In this document: one piece after another, positions 2,050-5,310 of the stretch | Layout: the number at the start of each line of letters is the position of its first letter | Position numbering within the stretch: the stretch's first letter is position 1 | Source of the DNA: a virus | Lineage: Duplodnaviria > Heunggongvirae > Uroviricota > Caudoviricetes | Length of the DNA stretch: 5,360 nucleotides | IMG/VR virus record: IMGVR_UViG_2706794677_000009 | Direction: 5' to 3' (one strand) | Made by a program: the position numbers and the translations under genes | The notes under the pieces: model-generated | Database searches by the model: none | Told to the model about the DNA's origin: nothing | Seen by the model: the letters and a program-made list of their open reading frames with translations, nothing else

Positions 2050-2423
2050 TGCGCCATGAGTTTATTTTACCTTATCCGCCGACGGTGAATACTTACTGGC
2101 GACGTCGTGACAACACATATTTTGTATCAAAAGCCGGTGAGCGTTATCGCCGGGATGTGGCGCTTATTGTCCGTCAGCAGCGACTGAAATTAAGCCTGTC
2201 CGGAAGACTGGCGATAAAGATTATTGCAGAGCCACCGGATAAGCGCCGTCGTGACCTGGACAATATCCTGAAAGCACCACTGGATGCACTGACACATGCG
2301 GGAGTGTTAATGGACGATGAGCAGTTTGATGAAATCAATATCGTTCGTGGTCAGCCAGTATCTGGTGGACGTCTGGGGGTGAAGATTTACCCCATAATGC
2401 ATGAAGAGCAGGTCAAAAAATGA
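2049..2423 (+). CDS. rusA: RusA-family Holliday junction resolvase (endodeoxyribonuclease RusA)
   Basis: 124 aa. N-terminal LPYPPTVNTYW and the RRRDLDN acidic motif with C-terminal GGRLGVKIY follow the RusA pattern (E. coli RusA has LPWPPSNNRYY ... RRRDLDN). Sits directly upstream of Q, as in lambdoid nin regions. Confidence 0.85.
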   Translation: MRHEFILPYPPTVNTYWRRRDNTYFVSKAGERYRRDVALIVRQQRLKLSLSGRLAIKIIAEPPDKRRRDLDNILKAPLDALTHAGVLMDDEQFDEINIVRGQPVSGGRLGVKIYPIMHEEQVKK

Positions 2424-3274
2424 AACTGGAAGATTTACCGAAATACTACTCCCCAAAATCCCCTTGCCTGACCGATGCATCGGCCTCAACGTCAAAAGAT
2501 GCGCTGAGTATCACTGATGTGATGGCCGCGCAGGGCATGACACAGAATCGGGCTGAGATGGGGTTTTCTGCGTTCCTGGGGAAAATGGGCATCAGTATGA
2601 ATGACAGGGCGCGGGCAACAGAATTACTGGCAGATTATGCACTCAGTCGGTGCGATCGTGTGGCGGCGTTGAGAAAACTTCCGGCAGAAATAAAACCGGT
2701 AGTGATGCGCATTATGGCTTCGTACGCTTTTGAGGATTATGCCCGCAGCGCAGCGAGTAAAAAGCAGTGCCCTTGTTGCTATGGGGAAAAATTTATTGAA
2801 AGCGTAGTTTTTACAAACAAGGTCCAGTATCCGGATGGTAAGCCGCCGGTATGGGCAAAGTGTACGAAAGGTGTGTATCCGTCTTACTGGGAAGAATGGA
2901 AAAAAGTCAGGGAGGTGGTAAAAGTTGCCTGTCCGGAGTGTGGCGGAAAGGGTGAGGTTTCCACCGCCTGTAAGGATTGCCGTGGGCGTGGTGTCGCCAT
3001 TCATCGTGAAGAGTCGGTAAAACGTGGTATGCCTGTTATCAGAGACTGCCAGCGTTGTGGTGGTCGTGGCTATGAAAGACTACCATCAACGGAGGCATTT
3101 AATGCTATATGCGAGGTGACAAACCAGATAACACGCGCGTCATGGGAAAAAACAGTTAAGAAATTCTATGATGCGCTGGTGACTCGGTTTGATATTGAAG
3201 AAGCATGGGCTGAGCGGCAGTTAAAAAAGGTAACTAGGTTGATTTTTCCGGAATCTGTGGTAAATTCGTCATAA
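2420..3274 (+). CDS. Q: Late-gene antitermination protein Q (phage 82 / Qin QuuQ-like family) with a cysteine-rich zinc-binding region
   Basis: 284 aa. The N-terminus (LEDLPKYYSPKSPCLTDASASTSKDALSITDVMAAQGM) resembles my recollection of Qin-prophage QuuQ. Three CxxCxGxG repeats lie at aa 171-178, 184-191 and 210-217. The position (after rusA, before the terminator and tRNAs) is canonical for Q. ATGA start/stop overlap with rusA. Confidence 0.75.
   Translation: MKLEDLPKYYSPKSPCLTDASASTSKDALSITDVMAAQGMTQNRAEMGFSAFLGKMGISMNDRARATELLADYALSRCDRVAALRKLPAEIKPVVMRIMASYAFEDYARSAASKKQCPCCYGEKFIESVVFTNKVQYPDGKPPVWAKCTKGVYPSYWEEWKKVREVVKVACPECGGKGEVSTACKDCRGRGVAIHREESVKRGMPVIRDCQRCGGRGYERLPSTEAFNAICEVTNQITRASWEKTVKKFYDALVTRFDIEEAWAERQLKKVTRLIFPESVVNSS
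3239..3266 (+). promoter_or_regulatory. Candidate late promoter pR' (sigma70-like: -35 TTGATT, 16-bp spacer, extended -10 TGgTAAATT), overlapping the last codons of Q
   Basis: TTGATT at 3239..3244 and TAAATT at 3261..3266 preceded by TG at 3258..3259. A terminator ~45 nt downstream fits the short pR'-tR' unit of lambdoid phages. Hexamer matches are imperfect. Confidence 0.4.
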
Positions 3275-3313
3275 CTATGGGCGTTTTATGCCTGACGTTA
3301 GAAGAGTTTCTAC

Positions 3314-3340
3314 AACCCGCCGCCGAGCGGGTTTTTTATT
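3314..3340 (+). terminator. Intrinsic terminator (candidate tR'): 6-7 bp GC stem ACCCGC/GCGGGT, 6-nt loop, then TTTTTTATT
   Basis: 3315..3320 pairs with 3327..3332, followed by the T-run 3332..3340. Confidence 0.6.
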
Positions 3341-3367
3341 GCGGAATTAATTACGGACCGTTATTAT
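3339..3367 (+). promoter_or_regulatory. Possible promoter for the tRNA genes (-35 TTGCGG, 17-bp spacer, -10 TATTAT)
   Basis: TTGCGG at 3339..3344 and TATTAT at 3362..3367. The -10 ends 10 nt before the mature tRNA 5' end at 3377. The -35 is weak. Confidence 0.3.
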
Positions 3368-3376
3368 TCTGCTCCC

Positions 3377-3452
3377 GGCCCTTTAGCTCAGTGGTGAGAG
3401 CGAGCGACTCATAATCGCCAGGTCGCTGGTTCAAATCCAGCAAGGGCCACCA
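3377..3452 (+). tRNA. tRNA with anticodon CAU, most likely tRNA-Ile2 (lysidine type, decodes AUA); elongator tRNA-Met not excluded
   Basis: Manually folded 76-nt cloverleaf: acceptor GGCCCTT/AAGGGCC, D-arm GCTC-AGTGGTGA-GAGC, anticodon loop CTCATAA, T-arm GCTGG-TTCAAAT-CCAGC, discriminator A, encoded CCA. Close to my recollection of E. coli ileX and of the ileZ gene of Stx phages. Confidence 0.88.
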
Positions 3453-3552
3453 TCACAAACCGCCATTAGCTTATCAGGAAGAGCAGACGACACGATAACA
3501 GGGTTGTTGGTGCGGGGGCGGGTCCCCGATGGCGGTCCATTATCGGTATTCA

Positions 3553-3629
3553 GCGTTGTTAGCTCAGCCGGACAGAGCAATTGCCTTCTAAGCAATCGGT
3601 CACTGGTTCGAATCCAGTACAGCGCGCCA
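3553..3629 (+). tRNA. tRNA-Arg, anticodon UCU (decodes AGA/AGG)
   Basis: Manually folded 77-nt cloverleaf: acceptor GCGTTGT/ACAGCGC (one G-U pair), D-arm GCTC...GAGC, anticodon stem ATTGC/GCAAT with loop CTTCTAA, T-arm ACTGG-TTCGAAT-CCAGT, discriminator G, encoded CCA. Confidence 0.9.
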
Positions 3630-3739
3630 TATTCATTCTTCCAGATTCCTTCCGGCAGAGCCTTATACTGAAATATACCTGGCTCAGGATATTGTTGAAA
3701 ATATTTTATGTTTGTCAAAAATAAAAGTTCTGTTAAGTA

Positions 3740-4093
3740 TTGATTGAGTGTTTGTTATACGGTCTAATGGTTTTTTCAGCATTAAATATTTATCATTCAT
3801 ATGGTGTGGGTAGAGTGAATATTGATGAGGCGTCGGGGTGTTTCATCCTTAGGCAGCGTATTGATATAGTCAATGCAGCACGAGCAAAGGCCTTCAGCCG
3901 TTTGACAGTTTTGTTCTGTACTCCTGATCGTCTTTCGGGAAGAGACGTTATTATTCTGAATAGTGATGCTATACAGAGGGTTTGCGATGAGTTCATGGTT
4001 GCTAATTCAGAATTATTTGCTCTTGTTCAGGAGTACAACAGAATAGCCAGGACCTGTGGTATGGATGAACTTCGGATTACTCATCTGGGGTAG
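3740..4093 (+). CDS. Hypothetical protein (orphan cargo gene, no family recognised); start codon uncertain (TTG 3740, ATG 3767, or an internal GTG)
   Basis: 354-nt open frame in AT-rich DNA directly downstream of the tRNAs. No convincing Shine-Dalgarno or own promoter found. Uses AGA and AUA codons. Stop TAG at 4091..4093. Confidence 0.45.
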   Translation: MIECLLYGLMVFSALNIYHSYGVGRVNIDEASGCFILRQRIDIVNAARAKAFSRLTVLFCTPDRLSGRDVIILNSDAIQRVCDEFMVANSELFALVQEYNRIARTCGMDELRITHLG

Positions 4094-4484
4094 ATACATA
4101 TCTGGATTATCACCTGTTACGGTAAAAAGTGATTGCTTACTGTTTTTGTGAATGGCATTGCAGCAGCCGGATAATGTCAGTGCTGGCTGACGGTGTGCTG
4201 GTGGCGGGTGTGGTGGTTGTTGCTTTCCCGTTGCTGAAAAAGAAAACGCCAGACTGTTAGCCGGGTATCAGTTAGCGGGAGAAATTTTTAAATACTTCAC
4301 AATTCAGGCGGTTGACTGTTGTCTGGTTTGCGGGGAGTTTGTTAAAAGAAACTGGCATGGTGAATCCCCCTGTGCGGAGGGGCAATCAGCGAGTAGGTAT
4401 ATGGGATAATCGCGGATTCAGGTGCTGGTACTGAATTCACCGGGAGGCACCCGGCACCATGCAATGGCACATAGCGCCACTCTC

Positions 4485-4520
4485 CAGCCCCTCTCCGGAG
4501 GGGCTGTTTATATTGATTTT
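4485..4520 (+). terminator. Strong intrinsic terminator: perfect 9-bp GC-rich stem CAGCCCCTC/GAGGGGCTG, 4-nt loop, then TTTATATTGATTTT
   Basis: 4485..4493 is the exact reverse complement of 4498..4506, followed by a T-rich tract on the plus strand only. It lies 21 bp from the stop of the convergent minus-strand gene. Confidence 0.65.
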
Positions 4521-4538
4521 GTCAGATGTGAGTAAACT

Positions 4539-4571
4539 CCTTATGGACTTTGTTGTTTTAGTCCATAAGGA
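4539..4571. repeat. Perfect 11-bp inverted repeat (TCCTTATGGAC ... GTCCATAAGGA) with a 11-nt T-rich spacer, spanning the stop codon of the minus-strand gene
   Basis: 4539..4549 is the exact reverse complement of 4561..4571. Confidence 0.8.
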
Positions 4572-4876
4572 CATATTTGCAGAGTGCAACGGTTATTAAA
4601 GCATTCATTCAATACGTTATCTGTATTTGTAGGGCATTCCTGGCTATTTTTGATTGAATTCCAGAATGTTTTATTGAATGGTACTACGTTGTAAATGGTT
4701 ACAGGTAGCACTTTGTTATTGAGCATGATGCCTGTGTGAGTCAGTGTAAATATACTTTCAGGAGGTAAGAAAGCATCCGATTGATACCAGATTATTAATT
4801 TTATTTTACTCCATATGACTGAAAAAGATATTCCGCATGATGGCTGGATAACTGTATCAATCACAATCCACTTCAT
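4541..4876 (-). CDS. Hypothetical 111-aa protein, Trp/aromatic-rich N-terminal part and C-terminal C-x11-C-x4-C-x4-C cluster; orphan cargo gene
   Basis: ATG at 4876 preceded by AAGGAAA about 6 nt upstream (good Shine-Dalgarno). Stop TAA at 4541..4543. AT-rich codon usage. Promoter-like hexamers lie upstream. No family recognised. Confidence 0.62.
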
Positions 4877-4943: not shown

Positions 4944-5136
4944 CCATAGAGCAGAATTATTTTTCTGATGTTGTTTATTGTTTATTTAAATGCAGGGTGG
5001 TTTATATCTCGTCTTGTAGTTTATCCATGCATATCTGCTTGATAATCAGGTTTTTATTTAAGGTATGGTTTTGTGTTTTTTCTGTATTACATGTCAGGTA
5101 TTTTAAAGAATTATTTTTCAGATGGTGGAAAGAACC

Positions 5137-5310
5137 ATGGCATTTAAACACTATGATGTTGTCAGGGCGGCGCCGCCGTCAGATCTTGCGGAAAAGCTGA
5201 CACATAAACTGAAAGAGGGCTGGCAGCCGTTTGGTAGTCCGGTGGCCATAACCCCTTATACCCTGAGGTGTACTGGCAATAGCGGACACTACCATTTGTT
5301 CTTTTTTTAA
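5137..5310 (+). CDS. Small hypothetical protein (57 aa from ATG 5137); resembles, from memory only, the small conserved prophage ORFs (DUF1737-like) that precede nanS-p esterase genes in lambdoid prophages
   Basis: ATG 5137 preceded by GGTGGAAAG (Shine-Dalgarno-like) and has E. coli-like codon usage. The track's 5122 start lacks a ribosome-binding site. Stop at 5308..5310. The family assignment is an unverified recollection. Confidence 0.5.
   Translation: MAFKHYDVVRAAPPSDLAEKLTHKLKEGWQPFGSPVAITPYTLRCTGNSGHYHLFFF

Follow-up and report, generated by a model that had tools for sequence, protein, structure and literature searches.

A conserved 92-codon gene, probably accessory cargo, in the Shiga toxin position of a lambdoid prophage remnant

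The stretch analysed here, 5,360 nt of the IMG/VR virus record IMGVR_UViG_2706794677_000009 (the whole stretch is called the window), raises the question of what a lambdoid prophage encodes in the place where Shiga toxin 2 (Stx2) phages carry stx2AB. A preliminary description made from the letters alone had placed a plus-strand open reading frame (ORF) there, from TTG 3740 to a stop codon ending at 4093, and this frame of 117 codons was confirmed. The overall explanation favoured here, with moderate confidence, is that the locus holds an accessory lambdoid prophage gene at 3815-4093 that would start at a GTG codon with a weak ribosome-binding site. Its product would be a 92-residue soluble, mildly acidic two-helix hairpin of the Sb55 / PHROG 2873/4827 family. 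Together with a gene for a DUF3927 peptide, the gene would form exchangeable cargo between a transfer RNA (tRNA) cluster and an STnc100 element, where Stx2 phages carry stx2AB, and it would be expressed from a late transcript antiterminated by Q, possibly supplemented by a weak local promoter. The gene and its leader are as follows.

3815-4093, plus strand: the gene itself, GTG start, 92 aa, 10.4 kDa, isoelectric point 5.7, Sb55 / PHROG 2873-4827 family.
3630-3814, plus strand: AT-rich leader of about 34-36% guanine plus cytosine (G+C), which includes TTG 3740, ATG 3767 and GTG 3806.

Comparison with other genomes showed near-identical DNA in 1184 of 5426 complete Escherichia coli genomes and also in phage mEp460. 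Versions with 60-63% amino-acid identity were present in two further E. coli prophage lineages. In one of these (loci L002, L003 and L008), found in Stx-phage-like prophages of Shiga toxin-producing E. coli (STEC), the gene occupied the same slot behind a gene for an AraC-type regulator, while in the other (L007) it followed a DNA methyltransferase gene in a prophage of enterotoxigenic E. coli, where the Prokaryotic Genome Annotation Pipeline (PGAP) called a 92-aa hypothetical protein, WP_001017777.1. Pairwise Nei-Gojobori ratios of nonsynonymous to synonymous substitution (dN/dS) among the window, L002 and L007 were 0.26-0.27 in the ORF frame compared to 0.8-1.25 in the other two plus-strand frames. 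The frame remained open in relatives from several genera down to approximately 20% identity, and intact forms dominated the protein clusters (253, 175, 146 and 370 members, compared to 1-2 for the few disrupted variants). Because of these homologues and the low dN/dS in its frame, 3815-4093 is judged from sequence comparison to be a genuine protein-coding gene under purifying selection. Conservation of the frame in related prophages, a point on which the preliminary description had made its ORF depend, was thus borne out in all lineages. The opposite reading, in which AT-rich intergenic DNA leaves the frame open by chance or the ORF only mirrors an antisense gene, is extremely unlikely. Annotation pipelines do skip the gene, a 67-aa antisense ORF lies at 3793-3996, and dN/dS in the mirror antisense frame was also low (0.22-0.38). 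However, stops interrupt the mirror frame in both the window and L002, while no lineage has the sense frame closed, and the low dN/dS of the mirror frame is an expected artefact of constraint on the sense strand. Sense-frame homologues of conserved length, reaching to about 20% identity across genera, also argue against a chance frame.

The start of the gene had been left ambiguous between TTG 3740, ATG 3767 and internal GTG codons. All these candidates exist in the window but the evidence pointed to GTG 3815. In the L007 homologue annotated by PGAP, the equivalent GTG start stands four bases after AGGAG, with an in-frame TGA 11 codons upstream. Leaving aside L002 and the window lineage, all 10 loci had the frame closed no more than 12 codons before the family start; among them is L003, a member of the L002 lineage, with a stop at 6 codons. 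ATG 3767 is replaced by AAT in L002. The proportions of synonymous and nonsynonymous differences (pS and pN) in the 25-codon extension at 3740-3814 were 0.48 and 0.42, a pN/pS of about 0.87, compared to 0.58 and 0.25 in the core, so the extension appears to evolve near-neutrally. In addition, the N-termini of the family were in register from this start, M-x-N-Y-E-A-I-G-R-C in relatives aligning with (V/M)-N-I-D-E-A-S-G-C. Calculated pairing with the anti-Shine-Dalgarno sequence was best at GTG 3815 among the four candidate starts, with -4.5 kcal/mol compared to -0.4 at TTG 3740, -2.4 at ATG 3767 and +2.6 kcal/mol at the remaining candidate. The absence of a Shine-Dalgarno signal, as it had been described, therefore held for TTG 3740 and ATG 3767 but not for GTG 3815, which has a weak one. 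Since the upstream extension is unconserved and closed in relatives and the family N-termini are in register, the coding start is placed by comparison at GTG 3815, giving a product of 92 aa, and not at TTG 3740 or ATG 3767. The leader at 3630-3814, including the 5' extension, is most likely untranslated.

A longer product of 108 aa from ATG 3767 or 117 aa from TTG 3740, with its hydrophobic extension acting as a membrane anchor or signal, was weighed against this start and found very unlikely. In the window lineage no stop closes the frame over 27 upstream codons, gene callers often give forms of 108 aa or 117-118 aa, PHROG 2873 has 108 positions, and the extension is indeed hydrophobic, with a grand average of hydropathy of 0.96. 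Against these stand the lack of conservation, the upstream stops in L003 and L007 and the nearly absent Shine-Dalgarno pairing at either start already given. The maximum 19-residue hydropathy of the extension (1.33) was also judged too low for a membrane helix.

The preliminary description had recognised no family for this ORF, and this did not hold. The PHROG 2873 hidden Markov model (HMM) matched the 117-aa form with E 3.8e-70 and the 92-aa form with E 5.6e-58, and that of PHROG 4827 matched them with E 4e-5 and 2e-5, respectively; both families are without an assigned function. Among 24 aligned members, PHROG 2873 was matched by 22 and PHROG 4827 by 23. With a profile search the family could be followed into Proteus, Providencia, Serratia, Salmonella, Yersinia and Symbiopectobacterium, where its proteins have about 100 aa, and onto E. 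coli plasmids, where they have 91-96 aa. The diverged relatives in Salmonella, Yersinia and Proteus prophages and on E. coli plasmids had 20-40% identity. A profile scan of 1.84 billion representative proteins produced only 56 clusters, nearly all of 90-100 aa. From these searches, the family is considered small but real and restricted to Enterobacterales, with Sb55 of Salmonella phage ST64B as its only named member. The window product has the family length (92 aa in a family of about 90-102 aa) and its N-terminal register, M-x(0-5)-N-[YIF]-[DE]-A-x-G-x-C, in the form (M)NIDEASGC. It also carries all the invariant residues of the 24-sequence alignment (C9, I16, R23, Y74 and N75) and the nearly invariant E66 and E73. 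Sb55 with PHROG 4827 and the PHROG 2873 proteins (among them WP_001017777.1) shares with the window protein the N-terminal N-x-[DE]-A-x-G-x-C motif and an E-[YF]-N motif in helix 2, and Sb55 and the E. coli prophage proteins of PHROG 2873 also have the size of 90-102 aa and the late-strand place in common with it. In contrast, Sb55-type members have only about 20-25% identity to the window protein and a longer loop between the helices, and they lie after the lysis genes beside HNH and terminase genes, whereas the window gene lies in the slot between Q and the lysis genes. The extra length of the relatives P0179 and P0180 is just a coiled-coil tail, and they were uninformative. Scans of Pfam, NCBIfam and PADLOC with the ORF and the 24 family members gave nothing significant, a RHIM match (E 0.09) and PADLOC coiled-coil matches being rejected as noise. 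A literature search by accession numbers and PHROG id found no paper.

Structure prediction with AlphaFold2 from the 24-sequence alignment gave a mean predicted local distance difference test score of 88.3 and a predicted template modelling score of 0.75, with helices at residues 3-34 and 50-81 joined by a variable loop. The fold is thus confidently predicted as a long antiparallel two-helix hairpin. Fold searches, including Foldseek against the PDB and BFVD (best E 0.07), returned only generic hairpins and coiled coils, and no match from a profile search of PDB sequences had an E below 0.17. The profile and structure searches proposed in the preliminary description therefore led to a PHROG family but not to an informative fold or domain match. 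Rop, prefoldin arms and designed helical hairpins resemble the model in the general manner of coiled-coil hairpins, without sequence relationship, and this was not taken as membership. Anti-defence proteins of the Acb2/Tad1 type are also phage-encoded, small and helical, and their genes lie in comparable accessory positions of the late operon. Kinship with them was rejected, as hhalign gave a probability of 4.5%, there was no Pfam match to PF24729 and Acb2 was absent among the fold-search matches. At locus L021, a gene resembling Acb2_Tad1_hairpin (weak Pfam match) was observed two genes upstream of the family member. No signal peptide, membrane segment or hydrophobic segment was found in the 92-aa product. 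In the alignment and model, the N-terminal motif and the invariant residues are found close to the two chain ends. These ends come together where the hairpin is open, and we infer that this open end may be a binding surface. With low confidence, the model also suggests that the protein forms a homo-oligomeric helical bundle and acts by protein-protein binding.

The place of the gene was examined by comparison with the Stx2a phage PA27, for which the following features of the window are needed.

3377-3452, plus strand: tRNA with anticodon CAT (ileZ-like tRNA-Ile2, reads AUA), found by ARAGORN, Rfam tRNA 72.5 bits.
3553-3629, plus strand: tRNA-Arg with anticodon UCU (reads AGA), found by ARAGORN and Rfam.
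4129-4260, plus strand: gene for a 43-aa hydrophobic DUF3927 (TciB-like) peptide, PF13064 E 2e-27, PHROG 1470.
4326-4515, plus strand: STnc100/PasD-like small RNA and its terminator (4485-4506), RF02076 at 132 bits over the full length.
4541-4876, minus strand: homologue of the RssB anti-adaptor IraM, NF007393 at 162 bits, 61% identity to K-12 IraM.
5122-5310, plus strand: DUF1737 ORF, an N-terminal stub of a NanS-p-type esterase gene.

Window positions 3337-3637 aligned with the tRNA cluster of PA27 at 87%, 4297-4463 with the PA27 STnc100 element located after stx2B at 71%, and 5136-5244 with the start of the PA27 nanS-p-like gene at 84%. Between the tRNA and STnc100 anchors PA27 carries stx2A and stx2B, while the window carries the ORF and the DUF3927 gene, which is the second gene of the cargo block. 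Thus the claim that the ORF has the position and orientation of stx was confirmed, with Q, a terminator and the tRNA genes upstream on the same strand and homologous flanks in PA27. G+C was 0.34-0.45 over the cargo (3600-4100) compared to about 0.50 over Q and RusA. Since the flanks match PA27 while the cargo differs, the slot between the tRNA cluster and STnc100 is read from the alignment as a bounded, exchangeable cargo cassette, of about 0.7 kb in the window. The stx2AB cassette of PA27 and 933W-type phages has the same slot and orientation, after Q, pR'-tR' and the ileZ-arg tRNA genes and before STnc100 and a nanS-p-type gene, and it uses AGA/AGG and ATA codons as the window ORF does. It differs in cargo, as stx2AB encodes an AB5 toxin with signal peptides and the window cargo is an unrelated 92-aa cytoplasmic helical hairpin with a 43-aa peptide, and in having two tRNA-Arg genes in PA27 compared to one in the window.

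The identity of the window cargo as a Shiga or AB5 toxin cassette was rejected. No ribosome-inactivating N-glycosidase domain was found with Pfam or NCBIfam, the fold is a two-helix hairpin, the ORF product is without a signal peptide and the downstream gene encodes the 43-aa DUF3927 peptide and not a B subunit, in agreement with the earlier remark that the ORF does not resemble Stx A. It is likewise barely conceivable that the product has a function analogous to that of Stx, as a toxin or a secreted virulence factor. The cassette slot shared with stx2AB speaks for this by position alone, and against it are the plain helical hairpin, the lack of any toxin domain in the family-library scans, the lack of a signal peptide or hydrophobic segment in the 92-aa product and a neighbour that is a DUF3927 peptide gene instead of a B-subunit gene.

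Several observations were made on the surroundings of the slot. In the near-identical locus L001, PGAP annotated the DUF3927 gene. A TerB-like gene and a DUF3927 gene (6489-7063) also come after the family member of L018, a lineage with approximately 42% identity, which hints that the family gene and DUF3927 are a recurrent module. Four STnc100-type copies bracketed cargo blocks in the STEC prophage L003 (5575-5787, 7547-7742, 7806-8005 and 8067-8256) and a further copy was present in L022 (6698-6903), which suggests that elements of this type act as recombination boundaries for cargo exchange. The IraM homologue lies between STnc100 and the NanS-p/DUF1737 stub, in the orientation opposite to theirs; from its sequence, this late-region prophage gene would control the stability of RpoS. 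The name IraM was considered for the ORF itself and rejected, as the ORF had no NCBIfam match and the name belongs to this minus-strand neighbour. No homologue of the ORF was found beside the K-12 iraM locus. The DUF1737 stub is 84% identical to the start of a 1.9-kb gene downstream of stx2 in PA27, and PGAP labels it a partial pseudogene in L001.

The next question was whether the gene serves the phage or is carried by it. In all prophage relatives examined (the window and L001, L003, L007, L008, L010-L015, L018, L021 and L023), the gene lay on the late strand between Q and the packaging genes. Two positions were used: one between Q and the lysis genes, in the three E. coli lineages and for a 95-aa relative in L018, and one between the lysis genes and HNH/terminase, in Salmonella/ST64B, Yersinia, Proteus and for the longer relative P0180. 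Both late positions of lambdoid phages collect accessory genes. The genes found in them here were stx and genes for the IraM homologue and for AraC-type, TolA-like, TonB_C, Bro-N, PipA and Acb2-like proteins. The AraC-type neighbour was considered as PsrA, PsrB or PatE of enterohaemorrhagic E. coli O157 and no claim is made; the 40 listed records of that lineage had only non-O157 serotype labels where any was given. A late phage function in DNA packaging or lysis would fit the second position, as the Salmonella (ST64B sb55) and Yersinia members lie after the lysis cassette and directly upstream of an HNH endonuclease and the small and large terminase genes, and the Proteus and P0180 members are two small uncharacterised genes away from terminase. 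It is nevertheless an unlikely reading. The E. coli lineages place the gene before the lysis cassette in the stx slot, unrelated cargo replaces it in otherwise homologous phages, and very few sequenced phages carry it (mEp460 and four records of ST64B-type Salmonella phages), in line with the small number of clusters from the profile search. Plasmids carry the gene as well, in one case within a type IV pilus operon.

Because of this sporadic distribution and the other cargo in otherwise homologous phages, the gene is taken, on comparative grounds and with the moderate confidence given to the whole explanation, as an accessory or moron-type lambdoid prophage gene and not as a core phage function. 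The classical lambdoid morons are bor and lom of lambda, after the concept of Hendrix and Juhala. The window gene is similar to them in its presence or absence among homologous phages (stx2AB in PA27, and other cargo around the paralogues in L003 and L007), in a G+C lower than that of its neighbours and in the terminator that follows. It differs in that no convincing promoter of its own was found and in that the terminator is that of the STnc100 small RNA, which is conserved across cargo variants. With regard to the plasmid members, one lies near a gene for a PapB-type fimbrial regulator. Another, of 96 aa (L005 3983-4273), lies in a plasmid bfp-like type IV pilus operon between lytic-transglycosylase and pilin-like genes, with a good Shine-Dalgarno site and in a context unrelated to phage late operons.

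The adjacent tRNA genes had also been connected with the ORF through the AGA and AUA codons that they read. PGAP labels the tRNA(CAT) of the near-identical locus L001 as tRNA-Ile. Counted over the 92 codons from GTG 3815, 2 AGA and 3 AGG made up 5 of 10 arginine codons, and ATA made up 3 of 9 isoleucine codons. The codons are therefore present as described. However, the L007 homologue, with no tRNA genes nearby, has similar rare-codon use with 2 AGG and 3 ATA. Because homologues without nearby tRNA genes use rare codons too, the link between the ORF and the adjacent tRNAs is weak, and the rare-codon usage looks mainly like a result of the AT-rich composition.

Transcription of the gene was considered with respect to the elements upstream.

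2420-3274, plus strand: antiterminator Q gene, 284 aa, PF03589 E 7e-55, PHROG 127 'Q-like'.
3239-3266, plus strand: putative late promoter pR' read from the sequence, TTGATT, 16 nt, TGgTAAATT.
3314-3340, plus strand: tR'-like intrinsic terminator from the terminator scan, a G+C-rich hairpin followed by a T-run.

The putative pR' fell below the threshold of the consensus scan and was not reported by it. In the alignment, the pR'-tR' block directly 3' of a PF03589-type Q was shared by E. coli and Salmonella and, in part, by Yersinia, and the tR' hairpin pairing is retained in Salmonella and Yersinia although the stem sequence differs. The block is thus interpreted as a putative form of the expected pR'-tR' module. 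Stx phages make a short pR' transcript, and by analogy the module here could yield a terminated RNA of approximately 65-70 nt. The control of stx2 by Q and pR' is established. The gene shares the strand of Q and comes after Q, the putative pR' and tR', and no strong terminator lies in between. Only one terminator was predicted between tR' and the stop of the gene (3929-3947); it is AT-rich with 3 G-C pairs, lies inside the gene and is taken as a chance match, and the next clear terminator after the gene is that of STnc100. In PMC8065619, stx genes in this position are described as co-transcribed with the late genes on induction. Because of the stx position, the late strand, the post-Q module and the lack of a strong intervening terminator, late read-through antiterminated by Q is the best guess and would be the most economical route of transcription for the gene.

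A real but minor possibility is that the gene is instead a lysogenic-conversion gene with its own promoter in the leader (3630-3814), ending at the STnc100 terminator and largely independent of Q. One promoter-like match in the region had 9 of 12 positions at 3695-3722 (TTGAAA-16-AAAAAT), and a second, TTGATT-17-TCTAAT at 3740-3768, was read from the sequence; both are weak. The G+C of the block is below that of its neighbours and a strong terminator (4485-4515) follows it. The neighbours in the slot are host-directed, with the IraM homologue here and the AraC-type regulator beside the paralogue in STEC prophages, and plasmid-borne relatives cannot depend on Q. On the other side, promoter-like sites were as frequent as in shuffled sequence (6 in the region compared to 5.1 +/- 2.4 in shuffles), in agreement with the earlier statement that there is no convincing promoter. 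Moreover, no upstream element common to the three E. coli lineages extends further than about 30-80 nt, and in one lineage the gene lies directly after another gene and looks co-transcribed with it.

Whether the window copy itself can be induced depends on the state of the prophage, to which the left part of the window is relevant.

1-1670: insertion-sequence (IS) debris, with a fragment of an IS3-family transposase gene, an IstB fragment and a repeated IS end.
Between 1671 and RusA: an 85-aa ORF.
2049-2423: RusA.

The IS3-family transposase fragment within 1-1670 matched HTH_Tnp_1 (E 2e-19). A C-terminal IstB fragment of IS21 type at 1179-1454 (PF01695, E 1e-29) lies between two exact direct-repeat copies of a 157-nt IS3-family end (1011-1167 and 1516-1672). 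Homology to lambdoid prophages starts only at 1671, within the replicative-helicase gene, with IS sequence to its left. This junction of IS and prophage had no exact match among GTDB representative genomes and was spanned by none of the complete E. coli genomes; the DNA may well come from an IS-rich strain such as Shigella. The window prophage is hence a truncated remnant that has lost its early region to IS elements. With this region gone, the copy in the window could be inducible only in trans, with Q supplied or activated in trans. In addition, Q is 11 codons longer here (284 aa) than in its close relatives L001 and phage mEp460 (273 aa). A short direct repeat has lost one of its units, the AGGAACA-type AGGTAACA, in an 8-nt deletion near 3226-3274; the native TAA of Q went with it, so that the window Q reads 11 codons into the putative pR'.

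Four points weigh against the explanation of a GTG-started accessory gene on a late transcript, besides the local promoter already discussed. Firstly, the gene was left unannotated by PGAP and by Rapid Annotation using Subsystem Technology (RAST) in near-identical genomes and in mEp460. Secondly, the Shine-Dalgarno sequence of GTG 3815 is weak, 24% of random positions pairing equally or better, compared to GGAG-type sites of -5 to -10 kcal/mol at the equivalent start in relatives. Thirdly, plasmid members of the family lie outside any phage late operon, and as the family is also on plasmids, its function is not tied to the lytic cycle. Finally, owing to the loss of the early region and the altered C-terminus of Q running into the putative pR', Q-driven expression of the window copy may perhaps be defunct. 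As to annotation, unannotated copies were observed at L001 6186-6464, L003 6979-7257, L008 5071-5349 and L017 5576-5854, in two lineages that jointly match well over a thousand complete genomes, and mEp460 carries in place of the gene an annotated 38-aa antisense ORF that is probably spurious.

With respect to function, conservation is concentrated where the hairpin is open (N-x-[DE]-A-x-G-x-C and E-Y-N). With low confidence, this suggests an accessory factor that modulates the host or counters its defences, and not an enzyme, membrane protein or secreted toxin. A broader joint reading is speculative and rather doubtful: the family might be an unrecognised class of late-expressed phage and plasmid effectors, oligomers whose open-end pocket sequesters a host protein or signalling molecule. 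If so, these effectors might neutralise defence, or work with the DUF3927/TerB-like 'Tci' membrane module that follows in two diverged lineages, and the block from the tRNA genes to STnc100 would be a general cargo-exchange cassette with stx as one of several loads.

Overall, the finding does not overturn current understanding. The family is catalogued, the gene was mis-delimited and mostly unannotated, and the finding is of modest interest as an annotation fix. The correction concerns a gene in 1184 of 5426 complete E. coli genomes, which PGAP leaves unannotated in the two lineages examined and to which other callers give a wrong start. The protein is small, confidently modelled and carried by a viable phage, mEp460, so that its function is directly testable. 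Should the late-transcript model be right, it would also be a tractable small protein with expression late in the phage cycle. Finally, the stx position appears here as a bounded, exchangeable cassette with other loads, which bears on the origin of Stx phages and on what their non-Stx relatives express on induction.

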